A stretch of DNA of 62,969 nt from Bacilli bacterium (lineage in GTDB: Bacteria > Bacillota_I > Bacilli_A > Izemoplasmatales > Hujiaoplasmataceae). A program made the position numbers and the translations under genes. A model generated the notes under the pieces. The model saw nothing but the letters and a program-made list of their open reading frames with translations. It ran no database searches and was not told the origin of the DNA. The stretch spans positions 1 to 62,969 of the forward strand of contig JAFGQT010000082.1 of the NCBI GenBank assembly GCA_016935515.1. The letters are read 5' to 3'. How positions within the stretch are numbered: position 1 is the first letter of the stretch; the number at the start of each line of letters is the position of its first letter. This document shows positions 55,852 to 62,969 of this stretch, one piece after another.

Positions 55852-58800
55852 ATGAAAAGATTATTTGTGGTATTTTTTTTGGTGTTTTTTACGCTCGGAC
55901 TTGTGGGATGTGACTTGTTCGGTGGAGCGACAACTTCGCAAGTTGTCACTACTGAAACTTCAACCACGATCACAGAACAAACGACGACAGAGACGTCTGA
56001 TTTGACGTTGCGACTGATGCAGATTTATGAACTTGCTTTGGAGGCCGAAGCCTTTTCTGGCACATATGAAGAGTGGCTTGAGACTGTCAGAGGTCCTGAA
56101 GGCGCTCCAGGAGCAGATGGCCAAGAAGTTCTGATGCAGGTTGCGTCTGGTTATATCCAGTGGAAGCACGAGGGAGATACAACCTGGACTAATCTTATCG
56201 CTCTCACTGCTTTGGCCGGAGCTGATGGAATCGATGGGAAGGAACTCACATTGCAAGTTGCCGAAGGCAAGATTCAGTGGCAATATGTTGGAGATACCAC
56301 TTGGTCAGATCTGATAGATCTTTCTGTAATTACCGGAGCTGATGGAATCGATGGAAAAGAAGTAGCTTTCCAGGTCTTGGACGGCCATATCCAATGGCAG
56401 TACGTGGGTGAGACCAGCTGGGTTGACTTGGTGGATCTTGTTACGCTTACCGGAGAAGCTGGGACCAATGGAAAAGAAGTTGTTATGCAAGTGTCAGGTG
56501 GTTACGTTCAATGGCAATATGTCGGAGACACGACATGGACGAATCTGATTTCAATAGCGACCATTACAGGTGCCGATGGTATTGATGGTACAAATGGCGT
56601 TGATGGAAAGGAAGTCATCCTGCAAGTTACGGATGAATACATCCAATGGCAATACGTCGGTGATACGACGTGGACTAATCTGATTGCCTTGTCAACTCTG
56701 ACGGGCGCAGATGGTCTTGATGGAACCAATGGCACCGACGGACGTGAAGTGACGTTCCAAGTAGCCGATGATTATATCAAATGGCAATATGTCGGAGACA
56801 CGACATGGACAAATCTGATTTCAATAGCGACAATCACAGGTGCCGATGGAATTGATGGCACAAATGGCGTTGATGGAAAGGAAGTCATCTTACAAGTTAC
56901 GGATGACTACATCCAATGGCAGTATGTTGGCGACACAACATGGACGAACTTGATTGCTTTGTCAACTCTGACGGGCGCAGATGGTCTTGACGGAACCAAT
57001 GGCACCGACGGCCGTGAAGTCACGTTCCAGGTAGCCGATGATTATATCAAATGGCAATATGTCGGCGACACGACATGGACAAATCTGATTTCAATAGCGA
57101 CTATCACAGGTGCTGATGGAATACCCGTGACGTTGAGAGTTGATTCAGATTACATTCAGTGGCAGTATGTTGGCGACACAACGTGGACGAACTTGATTGC
57201 CTTGTCAACTCTGACGGGCGCAGATGGTCTTGACGGAACCAATGGCACCGACGGCCGTGAAGTCACTTTCCAAGTAGCCGATGATTATATCAAATGGCAA
57301 TATGTCGGAGACGCGACTTGGACGAATCTGATTTCGATAGCGACAATCACAGGGGCCGATGGAATACCCGTGACGTTGAGAGTTGATTCAGACTATATTC
57401 AGTGGCAGTATGTTGGCGACACAACGTGGACTGATTTAATCGCTTTATCTGATCTTACAGGTGCTGCTGGCAGTGATGGAAAAGAAGTTGAAATGCAATT
57501 GGCTGATGGTTACATCCAATGGCATTATGTCGGTGAAACTACATGGTTGAATCTGGTTTCCGTAGCTTCGATTACCGGAGCTGATGGAATTGACGGTAAG
57601 GAAGTGACTTTCCAAACTTCAACTACCCATATTCAGTGGCAATATGTTGGCGATACTGTCTGGACCGATCTGATTGAACTCGCTACCTTGATTGGACCAC
57701 AAGGAGTTCAAGGCGTAGGGATTTCATCGGCGGTAGTAAATGAAATCGGGGAACTGGTAATCACATATACAGATGCAACGGTAGTCAATCTTGGCCAGTT
57801 GCTCAAGGTTTGCCAAGTGGTGTACAAGGACTACAACGGATATATTCTTTCTGTACAACATGTTTTGTCAGGCAATAACGCGGTTGTTCCAACAGATCCT
57901 TCGCGAGGCGGGTATGATTTTTCTGGCTGGGATCAAGCTTCAACCGATATCGTTGCCGACTTGGAGATCAACGCTACTTATGCAAAACAGGCGTACACAG
58001 TTAACTTCTATGCGTATGATGGGACTCTGCTTAAAACTGAATCAGTGCTTTATCTTGATGGCGCTACTGCACCGGTTGCACCAAGCATTACGGGGAAGAC
58101 ATTTGTCGGATGGTCCGAAGATTATGCTGCTGTAGACGCAAATTTGGATATTGATGCTGAGTACGAGACCAACACTTATCATGTTGATTTTTATGATTAT
58201 AATGGTTCGCTGATGTCTGCTCAAGTAGTAGTGCACGGCGGATCAGCCATTGCTCCGGAATCTCCGGCAAGAGAAGGTTATGATTTCTTAGGCTGGGATC
58301 AGCCATATCTGAACATCACGACAGATCTGGCAATCTACGCCACTTATACTCTAGAGACTTATGCAATAACATATTATGATCGCGAGTATGCGATAATCTC
58401 AACTGAGTCAGTCGAAAGGGGACAGGATGGGACTCCACCTGTGGCTCCGGCAATTGAGGGCTATCGCTTCATTGGTTGGGACAAACCCGTTGAACACGTG
58501 ATGTACGATTTGGATGTGATTGCGCTCTATGAAATCATCGTTTATGAAGTTGTCTTTCGAAATTATGATGGTTCGATTTTTGATATCCAGCATGTTCAAC
58601 ACGGATCAGATGCATCCGATCCTGGATCTCCGACAAAAGTTGGCTGGAGTTTCACAGGTTGGAACCAGACTTATATCTCGGTAACTGAGGATCTTGATAT
58701 TGCGCCAGTGTTCAGTCAACTAAGTTATCAAGTCGATTTCTATGATGAACTTGGCAATTTGGTCGATTCACAGACAGTATTACACGGTGAAGATGCGGTT

Positions 58801-61800
58801 GACCCGTATCCTACAACACCTTCATTGATTAAAACTGGCTACGAGTTTGTTGGCTGGGACGAGACTTTGAAAAATGTGACTGCGAATCTAACATGTCACC
58901 CGATATATGAGATCATCACATATGAAGTCACGTTTGTTGATGATAATTATCATGTGTTTGACGTTCAGACAATTAACCATGGGAGCACTGCTTATTCACC
59001 TTTGACACCATCGAAGACAGGCTATGATTTTGTTGGTTGGGACACTGACTTCTCGAGTGTCACTGCTGATCTTATTGTAATGGCAACTTATGAGATTCGT
59101 TCATTCGTTGTCGATTTCTACGATGCCCAATCAAACCTGTTGGTTTCAGAATCCGTAAATTACATGGATTCTGCGACAGAACCGATGGCACCGATCATCA
59201 TAGGTTATGATTTTGTTTCTTGGGACAAAGATTTCAGTCAGGTCACAAGCTCAATGTCAATTTATCCGATTTATCAGATCAAGACTTATGAAGTGGTCTT
59301 TCATGACAATGATGGTGCTATCTTGAGTTCACAGACCATCTATCATGGTGATGATGCAGTTGCGCCAACGGACATGGATCTTTTTGGCTACACGTTCAAC
59401 GGTTGGGACACGATTTATACGGATGTGGTTTGTGATCTTGAAGTCCATCCATTATATACGGTCAATGAATACAGCGTTGTTTTCGAGGAGAATGGCGGTT
59501 CGTCAGTGACGGATCGTAGCAACGTGACCCACGGTTCAACAATCAGCCTCGAAATTCCCGTTCAGTTGGGATATAGATTCACGGGCTGGTATTTTGGCGA
59601 CACCGAGAACGATGCCAAGTTCTATGCGACTACTCCCGTTACTGGAGATCTGACCTTATATGCTAGGTGGGAGCTCGCCAGTTATGATGTCATCTTCTAT
59701 GATTATGATGATACGATCCTAAGAAAGAGCCTGATTGGTCATGGGTATACGGCTATCGCGCCTGACGATCCTTCTCGTGTCGGCTACACCTTCGAAGGTT
59801 GGGATACGTCTTTCCATGTTGTGGTGACGGATTTGTCTATTCATCCGATCTATATCGCTATAGACTATCCTTTAACAGTGGATGAAAATGGCGGGACATA
59901 CGTTCCGGATATGTTGATAGCTTATGACACTTCAATACCGTTATTGGTCGAACCTTCGCGGAACGGCTATACTTTTGTCGGGTGGTTCAAGGATTCATTG
60001 TTGACAATCCCGTTCGTTAATGACGGATCAACTGAATTAATGCCACTCAACGGACTGTCTATTTATGCCAATTGGGATATCAACCAATATACGATGAGCT
60101 TTGAAGAAAATGGCGGTTCAACAATCGATGATATCACTTTGGATTACAATACCGTAATTCAAGAGCCGACGGAACCAACGCGGACCGGCTATACTTTCAA
60201 GGGCTGGTTCAGTGATCCTGATTTTTCCACCGAGTATGAATTCACAAACATGCCAGCTGAAAATATCACACTTTACGCCAAGTGGCAAATAAACGAATAT
60301 GAAGTATATTATTTCGCTGAAAATGTCAATCTCAGCGAACCAGGATTGATCAACATTGATACCAACGATTTCTTTGTCCAAATAAGTGGTGGTGGAGATC
60401 ATACGATTGCCTTGACCAATGAAGGCAGGGTTTTCACATGGGGTTATAATAATTGGCGTCAACTCGGAGATGGAACAGTTCTAACGCGTACGAGTCCGGT
60501 GGAGATTACAGCCAATCTGCCATTAAACACTGGAGAAAAAGTAGTAGTCGTTGGAGCTGGCAGTCTGCATACGGTCGTATTGACATCTGAGGGACGGATT
60601 TTTACCTGGGGCAACAATGATTATGGACAGCTAGGTAACGACCAGACGAGTTGGATAACGATTAATGACATCACGGCAAGATTTGACTTGGGAAGTGAAG
60701 AAAGAGTTATCAAACTGTCTGTCGGAGATTATCATTCCGGAGTTATCACATCCGCTGGACGAGTCTTCGTTTGGGGTAGCAATTCTTATGGCAAACTGGG
60801 AGACGGTACCGCAATAAACAGTCTCGTTCCGATTGAGATAACACAACAATTCAGTCTGACTGGAGACGAAATCATCAGTTCGCTGGCTTTGGGAGCAGTG
60901 CATTCAGCGGCGGTTACCAGTTATGGCAGAGTCTTCACATGGGGATATAACAATTATGGACAACTTGGTGATGGACTGACGACTTCTTTGGCCTCGCCGA
61001 CAGAGATAACTAGTAACTTTGGATTGGCTATCGATGAATATGTAACTGATATTGATGTCAATGGAAATTTCTCATTGGCAATCACCTCGGACAACAGAAT
61101 TTTCACCTGGGGATTGAACTCCGAATATCAGCTCGGTGATGGAACCAACATCTCGAAATTGCTGCCAAATGAGATCACCCACATGTTTGACTTGGCAGAA
61201 GGGGAGACTTTCGCTTCCGCAAGTCTGGGAACGATTTTCGCAGGTGTATCGACATCTCTAGAAAGAGTGTTCACCTGGGGTTATAATGGCTACAGTCAAT
61301 TGGGCACGGGAACAACACTTTCGGGTCATTCGCCATTTGAAATTACCGGTAACTTCAACATGAGTTGTGAAGATGAAGGAGTTGTGGAAGTTTCCATGGG
61401 GGCTTCGCATTCCACAGCTTTAACATCCAGCGGCCAGATTCATGTTTGGGGTAAGAATTTTTATGGTCAGCTTGGAATAGGCACGACAACCATAAGCGCC
61501 TATCCAGTTCAGCCTAAGTTGTACCATTCCATGCTGCTTGAGAAGTTTGAGGTTTATGCATACAATGCGACATTGACGGAATATATTCCGACAAGAACCG
61601 GCTATAGTTTTGACCAATGGTACACTGACGTCGCGATGACCAATCCTTATGTCTTCTCGACTATGCCGGCAGATGATGTCTATCTCTATTCGGAATGGAT
61701 AGTCAACAGTTACACCATTTCCTTTGAGGAAAATGGCGGTTCGGAAGTCGTTGATATCACTCAGGATTACAAGACAACGGTCGTGGCTCCGACAGAACCA

Positions 61801-62969
61801 ACCAGAACAGCGTATACTTTTATTGGTTGGTTTGCGGATATCGATTTGACGGTCCCTTATACTTTCTCGACGATGCCGGCAGAAAACATCACTTTATACG
61901 CCAAATGGACCAATGTCCCTTACACGATCAGTTTTGAGGAAAATGGCGGCAGCGAAGTTACAGATATAACAGCGTTTTACAATGAACCGGTCGATGCGCC
62001 TGCAGATCCTACTAGAGAAGGATACACTTTCATGGGTTGGTTTGCGGATGCAGGACTTACGACTCCATATGAGTTCACAACCATGCCGCTTGACGGAACT
62101 ACCGTTTATGCGGATTGGGAGATCAATCAATATTCGCTCAGTTTTAATGCGATAGAAGAATACTTGAACCCACAGTTTGAAAATGGAGCAAATCATAGTT
62201 TGTTGTTGACACAGGACAACAGGTTGTATGCGGTTGGCTATAACATTTACGGTCAACTAGGAAATGGAACCTTGACCAACACGACAACGAAAATCGATAT
62301 TACTGATTTCCTAGGACTTGGAGAACTGGAAAGCATTCAAAAGATTGTTGCCGCTTATCACTCAAGTTTTGTTTTGACAACTGATGGACGCTTGTTGGTA
62401 ACTGGAATAAATAGTGATGGCCAACTGGGCATCGGGGATCTTGTCAACCGCAATGTTTTTTGCGATATCACTGCCAATTTCAACCTCGCGACCGGAGAGA
62501 CGATTACCAACGTCTTCTCCGGAGGTTTGGTGACATTTGTATTGACATCTGAAGGCCGTATCTTTGGCTTTGGCGATAACTACGTCGGTTCAGTCGGCGA
62601 CGGTACTAGCAATAATGACCGGACTTTACCTGTGGATATCACCGCTAATTTCGATCTTGAAATAGGTGAAACGATCACTTCTGTAGAGATTGGCTATTAT
62701 CACGCTTATGCCATTACTTCAAATCACCGCGTCTTTAGTTGGGGCAGAAATACTTACGGTCAACTTGGTATCGGATCTTCAGCAGATCAATCATTACCTA
62801 TTGATATCACCGCCAACTTCCCGCTTGAAGTGGATGACTCGATTACAATGGTATCTGCGGGTTTAGATTTTGGAATTGCTCTCAGCGAATCGGGAAGAGT
62901 CTTTACTTGGGGGTACAACTATTACGGGATGTTAGGGGTCAACTATACAGGAAATATTTACTCTCCGCG
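55852..62969 (+). CDS. giant surface lipoprotein (more than 2,372 aa, 3'-truncated by the window end): collagen-like/WQY repeats, Listeria-Bacteroides repeats and two RCC1 propellers
   Basis: RBS aggggga precedes the ATG at 55852. MKRLFVVFFLVFFTLGLVGC is a signal peptide with lipobox LVGC. My manual translation of this frame is stop-free to position 62969. The ORF is absent from the supplied track because it has no stop, and all track ORFs in this span are other-frame or antisense shadows. Confidence 0.9.
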   Translation, partial: MKRLFVVFFLVFFTLGLVGCDLFGGATTSQVVTTETSTTITEQTTTETSDLTLRLMQIYELALEAEAFSGTYEEWLETVRGPEGAPGADGQEVLMQVASGYIQWKHEGDTTWTNLIALTALAGADGIDGKELTLQVAEGKIQWQYVGDTTWSDLIDLSVITGADGIDGKEVAFQVLDGHIQWQYVGETSWVDLVDLVTLTGEAGTNGKEVVMQVSGGYVQWQYVGDTTWTNLISIATITGADGIDGTNGVDGKEVILQVTDEYIQWQYVGDTTWTNLIALSTLTGADGLDGTNGTDGREVTFQVADDYIKWQYVGDTTWTNLISIATITGADGIDGTNGVDGKEVILQVTDDYIQWQYVGDTTWTNLIALSTLTGADGLDGTNGTDGREVTFQVADDYIKWQYVGDTTWTNLISIATITGADGIPVTLRVDSDYIQWQYVGDTTWTNLIALSTLTGADGLDGTNGTDGREVTFQVADDYIKWQYVGDATWTNLISIATITGADGIPVTLRVDSDYIQWQYVGDTTWTDLIALSDLTGAAGSDGKEVEMQLADGYIQWHYVGETTWLNLVSVASITGADGIDGKEVTFQTSTTHIQWQYVGDTVWTDLIELATLIGPQGVQGVGISSAVVNEIGELVITYTDATVVNLGQLLKVCQVVYKDYNGYILSVQHVLSGNNAVVPTDPSRGGYDFSGWDQASTDIVADLEINATYAKQAYTVNFYAYDGTLLKTESVLYLDGATAPVAPSITGKTFVGWSEDYAAVDANLDIDAEYETNTYHVDFYDYNGSLMSAQVVVHGGSAIAPESPAREGYDFLGWDQPYLNITTDLAIYATYTLETYAITYYDREYAIISTESVERGQDGTPPVAPAIEGYRFIGWDKPVEHVMYDLDVIALYEIIVYEVVFRNYDGSIFDIQHVQHGSDASDPGSPTKVGWSFTGWNQTYISVTEDLDIAPVFSQLSYQVDFYDELGNLVDSQTVLHGEDAVDPYPTTPSLIKTGYEFVGWDETLKNVTANLTCHPIYEIITYEVTFVDDNYHVFDVQTINHGSTAYSPLTPSKTGYDFVGWDTDFSSVTADLIVMATYEIRSFVVDFYDAQSNLLVSESVNYMDSATEPMAPIIIGYDFVSWDKDFSQVTSSMSIYPIYQIKTYEVVFHDNDGAILSSQTIYHGDDAVAPTDMDLFGYTFNGWDTIYTDVVCDLEVHPLYTVNEYSVVFEENGGSSVTDRSNVTHGSTISLEIPVQLGYRFTGWYFGDTENDAKFYATTPVTGDLTLYARWELASYDVIFYDYDDTILRKSLIGHGYTAIAPDDPSRVGYTFEGWDTSFHVVVTDLSIHPIYIAIDYPLTVDENGGTYVPDMLIAYDTSIPLLVEPSRNGYTFVGWFKDSLLTIPFVNDGSTELMPLNGLSIYANWDINQYTMSFEENGGSTIDDITLDYNTVIQEPTEPTRTGYTFKGWFSDPDFSTEYEFTNMPAENITLYAKWQINEYEVYYFAENVNLSEPGLINIDTNDFFVQISGGGDHTIALTNEGRVFTWGYNNWRQLGDGTVLTRTSPVEITANLPLNTGEKVVVVGAGSLHTVVLTSEGRIFTWGNNDYGQLGNDQTSWITINDITARFDLGSEERVIKLSVGDYHSGVITSAGRVFVWGSNSYGKLGDGTAINSLVPIEITQQFSLTGDEIISSLALGAVHSAAVTSYGRVFTWGYNNYGQLGDGLTTSLASPTEITSNFGLAIDEYVTDIDVNGNFSLAITSDNRIFTWGLNSEYQLGDGTNISKLLPNEITHMFDLAEGETFASASLGTIFAGVSTSLERVFTWGYNGYSQLGTGTTLSGHSPFEITGNFNMSCEDEGVVEVSMGASHSTALTSSGQIHVWGKNFYGQLGIGTTTISAYPVQPKLYHSMLLEKFEVYAYNATLTEYIPTRTGYSFDQWYTDVAMTNPYVFSTMPADDVYLYSEWIVNSYTISFEENGGSEVVDITQDYKTTVVAPTEPTRTAYTFIGWFADIDLTVPYTFSTMPAENITLYAKWTNVPYTISFEENGGSEVTDITAFYNEPVDAPADPTREGYTFMGWFADAGLTTPYEFTTMPLDGTTVYADWEINQYSLSFNAIEEYLNPQFENGANHSLLLTQDNRLYAVGYNIYGQLGNGTLTNTTTKIDITDFLGLGELESIQKIVAAYHSSFVLTTDGRLLVTGINSDGQLGIGDLVNRNVFCDITANFNLATGETITNVFSGGLVTFVLTSEGRIFGFGDNYVGSVGDGTSNNDRTLPVDITANFDLEIGETITSVEIGYYHAYAITSNHRVFSWGRNTYGQLGIGSSADQSLPIDITANFPLEVDDSITMVSAGLDFGIALSESGRVFTWGYNYYGMLGVNYTGNIYSP
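56092..57720 (+). repeat. 13 tandem coding modules (about 36-45 aa each): (Gly-X-Y)2-5 linker plus V.FQV.D.YIQWQYVGDTTWTNLI.L..LTG
   Basis: I counted thirteen [IV][QK]W[QKH][YH][VE]G[DE]T..W..L cores. The linkers include GPEGAPGADGQE, GADGIDGKE, GADGIDGTNGVDGKE and GADGLDGTNGTDGRE, and the block ends with GPQGVQGVG. Confidence 0.85.
56511..57432 (+). repeat. higher-order DNA tandem repeat (units of 270, 270 and 243 bp plus a partial unit) within the module array
   Basis: atggcaatatgtcgg(a/c)gac(a/g)cgac recurs at 56511, 56781, 57051 and 57294. My manual alignment of units 1 and 2 gives about 24 differences in 270 bp, mostly at third codon positions. Confidence 0.85.
57805..60294 (+). repeat. 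13 tandem Listeria-Bacteroides repeat (Flg_new-type) domains
   Basis: Units of about 61-72 aa recur with the pattern Y.V.F.D..G..L..Q.V.HG..A..P..P...GY.F.GWD......DL.I...Y. The last units are the canonical form FEENGGS...P.R.GYTF.GWF.D......F..MP...I.LYAKW. Confidence 0.8.
60295..61544 (+). repeat. RCC1-type beta-propeller, seven blades
   Basis: There are seven repeats of H..ALT..GRVFTWG.N.YGQLGDGT, for example HTIALTNEGRVFTWGYNNWRQLGDGT and HSTALTSSGQIHVWGKNFYGQLGIGT. Confidence 0.8.
61545..62127 (+). repeat. 3 further Listeria-Bacteroides repeat domains
   Basis: Examples are SFEENGGSEVVDITQDY...PTRTAYTFIGWFAD...TMPAENITLYAKW and two relatives. Confidence 0.8.
62128..62969 (+). repeat. 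second RCC1-type propeller (at least 5 blades before the window ends)
   Basis: Blades include HSLLLTQDNRLYAVGYNIYGQLGNGT, LTTDGRLLVTGINSDGQLGIGD, LTSEGRIFGFGDNYVGSVGDGT, ITSNHRVFSWGRNTYGQLGIGS and LSESGRVFTWGYNYYGMLG. Confidence 0.8.

Follow-up and report, generated by a model that had tools for sequence, protein, structure and literature searches.

The InlB B-repeat of Listeria monocytogenes is reportedly the prototype of the Flg_new module, with a beta-grasp-like fold. RCC1 propellers set among Flg_new repeats are an architecture that is already described and widely annotated, and is not new. In honeybee-gut Bifidobacterium (B. asteroides group), surface proteins carry Flg_new repeats upstream of each RCC1 domain, with about seven repeats per domain and two to four domains per protein; the RCC1 genes make up multigene families, with diversification through duplication, and contig borders often interrupt them (Ellegaard et al. 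2015, BMC Genomics 16:284; PMC4449606). No work on the function of extracellular RCC1/Flg_new proteins turned up in a literature search. Wall-less Acholeplasma-like bacteria contact their surroundings via lipoproteins, few of which are larger or more variable than those of the RCC1/Flg_new family, no member of which has a known ligand.

The gene and its relatives

The window analyzed here is a whole contig of 62,969 nucleotides (C82) from a metagenome-assembled genome (MAG) of 1.40 Mb in 132 contigs. An ORF on the forward strand (55852 to 62967) runs off the contig, open at its 3′ end, after 2372 codons; its features are collected in Table 1. The protein starts with a putative lipoprotein signal peptide, in which LVGC, with the Cys at position 20, matches by eye the lipobox pattern [LVI][ASTVI][GAS]C. 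It also has a stalk of collagen-like repeats, and the homologues P0018, P0004 and P0056 show the same kind of N-terminal start.

Table 1. Features of the open reading frame that runs off the contig
Feature	Positions	Strand	Evidence or remarks
Signal peptide with lipobox, MKRLFVVFFLVFFTLGLVGC	55852..55911	+	Putative N-terminal lipid anchor; translation, L-V-G-C fits lipobox
Nine short Flg_new repeats, GW(D/S/N) array	57808..59466	+	61-residue motif spacing, Pfam Flg_new match
Flg_new transition zone	59467..60288	+	Long 59467-59679, short 59680-59862, long 59863-60084, long 60085-60288
Tenth short Flg_new repeat	59680-59862	+	
Leader strand INEYEVYYFAE	60289..60321	+	Putative strand 1 of the split Flg_new hosting propeller 1; profile score, model strand
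Propeller 1, seven-bladed RCC1-like beta-propeller (residues 1508-1886)	60373..61509	+	Motifs, AlphaFold2, Foldseek, phmmer
Trailing partial Flg_new (residues 1894-1952)	61531..61707	+	Putative rest of the split repeat; lacks strand 1 and the NGGS turn
Two canonical long Flg_new repeats, each beginning YTISFEENGGSE	61711..62118	+	61711-61908 (residues 1954-2019), 61921-62118 (residues 2024-2089)
Leader strand INQYSLSF, putative second split Flg_new	62122..62145	+	(I/V)NxYx(V/I)x(Y/F) pattern shared with the first leader
Propeller 2, incomplete: blades 1-4 and start of blade 5	62167..62967	+	Motifs; contig end within blade 5

The Bifidobacterium layout, Flg_new repeats followed by seven-repeat RCC1 domains, is also that of the window protein, with at least two domains visible. 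However, the Bifidobacterium proteins are linked to peptidoglycan by a C-terminal LPxTG motif, whereas the window protein has an N-terminal lipobox, so that its polarity toward the cell would be reversed. This predicted lipobox indicates an anchor that differs from the LPxTG type, and the collinear homologue P0018 has no LPxTG at its end. The window protein, which comes from a different phylum, is further distinguished by its collagen-like stalk and its long array of 61-residue short Flg_new repeats.

Acholeplasmataceae and other Mycoplasmatota encode giant proteins of the TIGR02543 family, such as P0004 of A. laidlawii (3741 residues) and the metagenomic P0018 (2378 residues), which are 38 to 41% identical to the window protein over 99 to 100% of the queried region. 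They share with it a lipoprotein signal, collagen-like IQWQY repeats, short and then long Flg_new repeats, and two to five seven-bladed propellers with a truncated Flg_new repeat after each. The number of cassettes differs, and propeller 2 of the window protein shows unusual degeneration: three of its blades no longer have the Trp of the WG motif. The same architecture is found in dozens of Acholeplasmataceae "InlB B-repeat-containing proteins", one of them from A. laidlawii. No near homologue was found, the best cassette identity being about 47 to 50%. Matches to the family occur in 23 of 41 related genomes, at 0 to 28 per genome, and even the other genomes of the genus lack a close orthologue; the 1.4-Mb genome itself holds at least four paralogous genes. 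In three homologues (P0003, P0046 and P0117), the same array serves as the ectodomain of a protein that spans the membrane once and carries a TIR domain on its cytoplasmic side.

The continuation of the gene was sought in the rest of the genome. No contig begins with the last 21 to 127 bases of C82, and blastn with the last 970 bases of the window returned only the self-match. Fragments open at their 5′ ends are present in C128 (8666 to 11926, reverse strand, 1087 residues, two propellers) and in C121 (1 to 864), and the 3′-open genes are the ORF of the window and one in C23 (16831 to 19788). C128 or C121 could be the missing end of the gene, which may have two propellers in total, or four if C128 continues it. 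An open frame over 7.1 kb and the collinearity of the whole protein with an independent 2378-residue homologue make it extremely improbable that this repeat-rich ORF is a chimera or a collapsed assembly, as might be suspected of a gene that contains a contig end in a fragmented MAG. Within positions 59400 to 62969, no direct repeat exceeds 78% identity, and thus nothing there should have misled the assembler.

Propellers and repeat classes

A Pfam search of the protein returned RCC1 (PF00415; 324.5 bits for a cut-off of 21.7, E = 8e-99, 10 stretches), WD40_RLD (PF25390; 432.6 bits for a cut-off of 150, E = 2e-129) and Flg_new (PF09479; 447 bits for a cut-off of 27, E = 3e-137, 13 stretches). 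In propeller 1, the motif G(R/Q)(V/I)(F/H)xWG occurs exactly seven times, at residues 1525, 1581, 1636, 1692, 1748, 1804 and 1861, which bears out the first-pass annotation of seven blades. Each blade comprises 55 to 57 residues, and the DNA period is 168 nucleotides.

The same annotation had considered these blades sufficient to close a propeller, and the structure prediction bears this out. The AlphaFold2 model of propeller 1 and its flanks (pLDDT 92.5, pTM 0.77) has 28 strands, i.e., seven times four, and its blade 7 combines an N-terminal with a C-terminal pair of strands (model residues 97 to 111 plus 452 to 475). Foldseek placed UVR8 first (TM 0.92 to 0.93, rmsd 1.9 Å), followed by RPGR, HERC2 and RCC1, and phmmer against the PDB also retrieved UVR8 (9e-65). 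The eukaryotic RCC1-like domains (UVR8, RPGR, the HERC2 RLDs and RCC1; TM 0.78 to 0.93 and 25 to 30% identity to propeller 1 by Foldseek) likewise have seven four-stranded blades and a ring closed by N- and C-terminal strands. In contrast to them, the window protein is predicted from its secretion/lipoprotein signal to be extracellular. Its blades are uniformly 55 to 57 residues long and lack the beta-wedge of RCC1, an insertion in one blade that defines the guanine-nucleotide exchange activity of that protein toward its intracellular partner Ran. GTPase exchange activity is not to be expected of the window protein. The resemblance to UVR8 is one of fold only: the UVR8 GWRHT motif is absent, the matching turns being GDHT, SLHT, DYHS, AVHS, GNFS, TIFA and ASHS, without Trp. 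An enzyme inhibitor of the BLIP-II type was rejected, since BLIP-II was absent among the 50 best Foldseek matches and nothing else was in its favor.

For propeller 2, five blades had been reported before the contig end. We found five motifs (residues 2123, 2179, 2235, 2292 and 2348), the last one interrupted by the contig end, so that the fifth blade is partial. This propeller is degenerate, the conserved Trp of FTWG being replaced by Val, Thr or Phe in blades 1 to 3. It is collinear with the second propeller of P0018, which runs 234 residues further and then stops.

We delimited 16 Flg_new units by hand, and their alignment confirmed the two subtypes proposed earlier. The ten short units (nine of 61 residues and one of 65) have GW(D/S/N), no C-terminal Trp and no 7- to 13-residue insert, and their anchor motifs are 61 residues apart. 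The six long units (67 to 74 residues) have GW(F/Y) and LYAKW; their number equals that of the stretches matched by TIGR02543 (205.8 bits for a cut-off of 20.95). Matches of the NCBIfam internalin models to the Flg_new stretch were well under their cut-offs. The long type adjoins the propellers, as had been noted, with its earliest copy at residue 1206, and one short repeat (residues 1277 to 1337) is interleaved among the long ones. Three canonical FEENGGS repeats had been counted between the propellers; there are only two, the element at residues 1894 to 1952 having no FEENGGS start. As in Listeria InlB, the repeats belong to PF09479 and serve as a rod or spacer module of a surface protein. 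Unlike InlB, the window protein has 16 copies in two length classes, with two copies apparently split by an inserted domain of about 400 residues.

Flg_new segments flanking the propellers

The first-pass annotation placed the propellers between blocks of Flg_new repeats. They are indeed flanked by Flg_new, but each appears from the sequence to be nested inside one split repeat, because a strand, INEYEVYYF for propeller 1, lies upstream and a remainder without first strand lies downstream. The element that trails propeller 1 covers only positions ~15 to 66 of the 66-position Flg_new profile, with a match that spans 18 to 66. The first leader scores 7.1 bits against the first seven positions of the profile, and 99% of control segments score no more than 5.4 bits. 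Over 22 cassettes, leaders average 9.0 bits, compared with 12.0 bits for true first strands, and 20 of them exceed the 95th percentile of the controls.

In the AlphaFold2 model, the first leader is a 9-residue strand (model residues 71 to 79), and the strands that flank propeller 1 are long, with 9 and 10 residues; those of the canonical repeat modeled with them have 6 and 3. The trailing partial repeat is kept after every propeller in the 22 aligned cassettes. It is retained even at the C terminus, as 24 of 30 family proteins tested, all of which end within 200 residues of their last propeller, stop 42 to 68 residues after it. Splicing the leader to the trailing half gave no gain in HMMER over the trailing half alone or a shuffled leader, with a join that lacks the 7-residue NGGS turn. 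We infer that the leader strand pairs physically with the trailing half-repeat.

In at least two Flg_new domains, a complete seven-bladed propeller would thus replace the turn after the first strand. The chain would enter and leave each propeller side by side, via its ring-closing blade, and the rod would therefore run on past the propeller, which would project to the side on a ribbon of two strands. This provides a clear domain map for annotation, and a folded unit should need propeller 1 and the split Flg_new repeat together (residues 1480 to 1952).

Cassette history and candidate function

A unit of 544 residues, consisting of Flg_new, propeller and trailing partial Flg_new, is conserved from end to end at 40 to 47% identity in 80 of 85 homologous cassettes. 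The earlier proposal of a cassette of GWF repeats plus a propeller thus holds insofar as this unit recurs, but the two copies in the window show no recent duplication. Propellers 1 and 2 are just 38% identical and give no blade-by-blade diagonal, with an in-register alignment of 167 bits versus 150 to 154 bits out of register. Both are closer to the propellers of P0018 (43 to 50% identity) than to each other. The window protein is collinear with P0018 (residues 50 to 2372 against 2144 of 2378), and the two-propeller layout therefore predates the divergence of the two genes.

That a recent tandem duplication within the window gene produced both propellers is consequently very unlikely, even with the identical order of the cassette present twice; the DNA copies are 60 to 78% identical, and propellers 1 and 2 do not group in a tree of 39 propellers. 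Such events do occur in the family, by intragenic duplication or homogenization, because propellers of the same protein cluster in P0056 (100/100), P0003 (propellers 1 and 2), P0004 (propellers 1 and 2), P0007 and C128 (propellers 1 and 2; 98/92). In that tree, 20 of 36 inner branches are unresolved and propeller 2 is one of two adjacent long branches; we set the tree aside as evidence for the placement of propeller 2. Across the family, the outermost propeller does not behave as a fast-evolving tip: it is the most divergent one in 14 of 30 cases (Wilcoxon p = 0.61), and we discarded this idea.

Taken as a whole, the protein is probably a surface lipoprotein with a rod of Flg_new repeats, some of them split, and with sideways propellers as candidate ligand-binding heads. 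The region would be the membrane-distal half of a giant lipoprotein (at least 2372 residues) of an Acholeplasmataceae-like wall-less bacterium, in which the rod of Flg_new (InlB B-repeat) domains follows a lipid anchor at the N terminus and a collagen-like stalk. Given this anchor, the propellers would lie at the distal end, as first suggested, and ligand binding would most likely take place there. They may attach the cell to the surface of a host, particle or polymer.

The blade cores show high conservation; variability peaks at residues of the loops (WG-x-N-xx, T-xxxxxx-P, L-xxx-E and G-xx-H), in which specificity might reside. Because these variable residues fall in the A-B/C-D loops and in the B-C loop, which are expected to point to opposite sides of the propeller, they do not single out one face for binding. 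Variable loops, at least four paralogues and presence in 23 of 41 genomes are traits typical of surface-binding proteins.

Alternatively, giant repeat proteins could form a protective, spacing coat on the wall-less cell, with the propellers as rigid nodes or lateral contacts, for instance between propellers as in the UVR8 homodimer, that bind no external ligand. Such a role would suit the several large paralogues in a small genome, the long collagen-like stalk upstream, the strongly conserved blade cores with variable positions scattered over several loops, and the fact that the nearest solved structure, UVR8, is a homodimerizing propeller. We nevertheless consider it unlikely: the protein lacks GWRHT, the motif of the UVR8 dimer and chromophore; the patchy distribution, with 0 to 28 matches per genome, is unlike that of an essential envelope component; and the array as ectodomain of TIR membrane proteins suggests sensing or binding.

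Beyond the favored reading as a lipoprotein with candidate ligand-binding heads, we tentatively propose that an RCC1 propeller together with the Flg_new repeat hosting it constitutes an obligate composite module, with the propeller inserted in the hairpin of strands 1 and 2 of the beta-grasp-like repeat, and that such modules serve generally in extracellular recognition. The TIR relatives might then be sensors of Mycoplasmatota-type bacteria that resemble Toll-like receptors, and the window lipoprotein a non-signaling, adhesin version. The cultivable A. laidlawii, which has a homologue, is a place to study function. The TIR-linked relatives, outside the window, possibly represent a class of bacterial transmembrane sensors and could matter more.

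Layout of the giant lipoprotein gene

The final 7.1 kb of the window, which is the whole of contig C82 from a fragmented MAG (1.40 Mb, 132 contigs, 78% complete), form one open frame of 2372 codons that continues past the contig end. The encoded N terminus, MKRLFVVFFLVFFTLGLVGC, is a signal peptide with a lipobox at its end. It is followed by ~600 residues in which collagen-like GxY runs alternate with a IQWQYVGDTTWTNL unit; a Pfam search matched no family to this region, and the same repeat occurs in the homologues A. laidlawii P0004, P0018 and P0056. Next come Flg_new (Listeria-Bacteroides) repeats, then RCC1 repeats from residue ~1500 (Pfam E-values: Flg_new, 3e-137; WD40_RLD, 2e-129; RCC1, 8e-99). 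The product is a lipid-anchored protein, and a Flg_new rod bearing at least two RCC1-like propellers makes up its outer half.

Features of the giant gene, its surroundings and related genes of the same genome
Feature	Contig	Nucleotides (strand)	Residues	Description
Adjoining upstream gene	C82	52723-55599 (+)		c-di-GMP signalling membrane protein; several PAS domains, GGDEF, HD-GYP-type HD domain
Giant ORF	C82	55852-62967 (+)		open at contig end
GxY/IQWQYVGDTTWTNL region	C82	56000-57800	~80-640	
Short Flg_new class	C82			n=10; nine of 61 aa, one of 65 aa; GW then D/S/N; final Y
Long Flg_new class	C82			n=6; 67-74 aa; GWF/GWY; 7-13-aa insert; LYAKW-type end
Modelled segment	C82		1412-1955	one long Flg_new, propeller 1, trailing element
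Start of strand ahead of propeller 1	C82	60295	1482	the region of the first-pass annotation begins exactly here
Propeller 1 motifs	C82		1525, 1581, 1636, 1692, 1748, 1804, 1861	G(R/Q)(V/I)(F/H)xWG
Element immediately past propeller 1	C82		1894-1952	no FEENGGS start
Canonical FEENGGS repeats	C82		1954-2019, 2024-2089	
Propeller 2 (residues: its motifs)	C82	62167-62967	2123, 2179, 2235, 2292, 2348	last truncated by contig end
Antisense ORF	C82	60118-60462 (-)		114 aa; taken for a chance frame
Antisense ORF	C82	61894-62256 (-)		120 aa; taken for a chance frame
Flg_new lipoprotein genes	C23	8289-19788		three in a row: 613 aa with one propeller, 2074 aa, >986 aa
Flg_new lipoprotein gene	C97	768-5741		
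Flg_new lipoprotein gene	C90	11014-16941		
Flg_new lipoprotein gene	C128	8666-11926		

Starting at residue 50 and as far as the contig reaches, the product is collinear with P0018 (2378 aa), which beyond that point has 234 more residues, comprising the remaining blades and a trailing half-repeat, and then a stop. By analogy, about 170-235 residues would be missing. Alternatively, the giant gene may run on into C128, which holds a 5′-open fragment of 1087 aa with two more propellers; no k-mer overlap links the window's end to other contigs of this genome.

Delimiting the Flg_new units yielded two classes, ten short and six long, with the long type flanking both propellers as the first-pass annotation had described; the TIGR02543 profile matched six stretches. 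That annotation's observation holds except in one respect, as it placed three canonical FEENGGS repeats between the propellers where there are only two.

Propellers and a probable split Flg_new repeat

Propeller 1 has exactly the seven blades previously counted, 55-57 aa long, and their 168-nt period is also seen in the DNA (60-78% identity). An AlphaFold2 model of the segment, based on an alignment with 21 homologous cassettes (A1), gave a mean pLDDT of 92.5 and a pTM of 0.77, with 28 propeller strands making seven four-stranded blades. Blade 7 is made of two strands from the start of the propeller (FVQISG, HTIALT) and two from its end (IHVWG, SAYPV), closing the ring in the usual RCC1 manner. 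UVR8 was the best Foldseek match (TM 0.92-0.93 on target, rmsd 1.9 Å, 30% identity), followed by the propellers of RPGR, HERC2, HERC1 and RCC1, and phmmer against PDB sequences agreed (UVR8, 9e-65). Motifs, modelled strands and structural matches thus all fit a closed propeller. The likeness is of fold only: there is no UVR8-type GWRHT tryptophan motif, and the blades, unlike those of RCC1, are uniform in length and carry no insertion. Propeller 2 is incomplete, showing five blades before the sequence stops. It lies on a long branch of the propeller tree. Relative to propeller 1 and to homologues its sequence is degenerate: blades 1-3 have V, T or F where FTWG has its tryptophan, and blade 3 reads GSVG in place of GQLG.

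A leader strand, (I/V)NxYx(V/I)x(Y/F), precedes the propeller in 22/22 aligned cassettes (INEYEVYYF here), and in all 22 the trailing element matches a Flg_new profile (66 positions, derived from 300 canonical repeats) only over positions ~15-66. Scored against positions 1-7, INEYEVYYF obtained 7.1 bits and the leaders of all cassettes a mean of 9.0 bits, compared with a mean of -1.4 (99th percentile, 5.4) for control propeller segments and 12.0 for genuine first strands. In the model, the leader and first trailing strands are 9 and 10 residues long, versus 6 and 3 in a canonical repeat, which fits a two-stranded ribbon from which the propeller would emerge. Among 30 tested family proteins ending <200 aa from their last propeller, 24 end 42-68 residues past it, indicating that the trailing half-repeat is kept even without further rod. 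Together, the profile matches, strand lengths and C-terminal retention suggest that a single Flg_new repeat, its strands putatively paired, is probably split at its first hairpin by the ~400-residue propeller. Such an insertion would be geometrically easy because the chain enters and leaves the propeller at neighbouring positions in blade 7. This nested-domain reading of the cassette is modestly new.

History and distribution of the cassette

More than 480 residues of the 544-aa cassette aligned in 80 of 85 homologue cassettes, with 40-47% identity among the 40 best; judged by these alignments, it is a conserved evolutionary unit. Propellers 1 and 2 are 38% identical in register (167 bits, versus 150-154 bits when shifted), and their alignments show no blade-to-blade diagonal. 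Each is nearer to either P0018 propeller (43-50%) than to the other, and the two do not group in a mostly unresolved tree. The cassette copies of this gene are thus old. The duplicated cassette proposed by the first-pass annotation stands as a recurring unit but not as a recent copy, and its interpretation as a whole is partly supported. Propellers of one protein do cluster in P0056, P0003, P0004, P0007 and contig C128, so intragenic duplication or homogenization does occur in the family, though not recently in the giant gene.

A database search returned 4810 significant proteins, the best being dozens of 1400-3800-aa proteins that combine Flg_new and RCC1, with 2-5 propellers each of equal span. 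They are named "InlB B-repeat-containing protein" or "TIGR02543 family" and assigned to Acholeplasma laidlawii, Acholeplasmataceae, Mycoplasmatota or Tenericutes; the named genome matches are MAGs of Acholeplasmataceae and Izemoplasmatales. Propeller matches occurred in 23 of 41 related genomes (0 to 28 per genome), none of which, including those of the same genus, has a close orthologue. The source genome has at least three more genes of this kind, on C128, C23 and C97. Several of the large Flg_new lipoprotein genes stop at a contig edge, so the assembly of this family in the MAG is probably incomplete.

The architecture is already published and widely annotated, though functionally uncharacterized. 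Honeybee-gut Bifidobacterium carry 7-24 such genes per genome, whose products contain 2-4 RCC1 domains of ~7 repeats, each domain preceded by a Flg_new repeat, and are anchored by a C-terminal LPxTG; duplication drives their diversification and they frequently break at contig borders (Ellegaard et al. 2015, PMC4449606). Giant extracellular all-RCC1 proteins are described in Oscillospiraceae (2023 preprint, 10.1101/2023.11.21.568195). We found no experimental ligand in the literature for any of these surface proteins.

Possible binding role and TIR-linked homologues

The propellers probably act as binding modules held far from the membrane. Their distal position, the expansion, patchiness and rapid divergence of the family, loop residues that vary around conserved blade cores, and the use of the array as an ectodomain in three TIR homologues all point to this role. 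Two results count against it: the variable blade positions do not define a single propeller face, and the family proteins tested show no trend toward faster evolution of the outermost propeller. The main rival, a purely structural coat, seems unlikely to us.

In the three homologues, P0003, P0046 and P0117, an N-terminal CxxC zinc ribbon and a TIR_2 domain (49-55 bits, cut-off 28) precede the Flg_new/RCC1 cassettes, and one transmembrane segment lies at aa ~650-700, ahead of the cassettes. They are predicted to be single-pass membrane proteins with the array outside and the zinc ribbon and TIR domain in the cytoplasm. No such N terminus was found in the source genome. These TIR-linked relatives are modestly new; their topology resembles that of a Toll-like receptor, but with the domain order inverted. 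P0046 additionally carries BspA-type LRRs.
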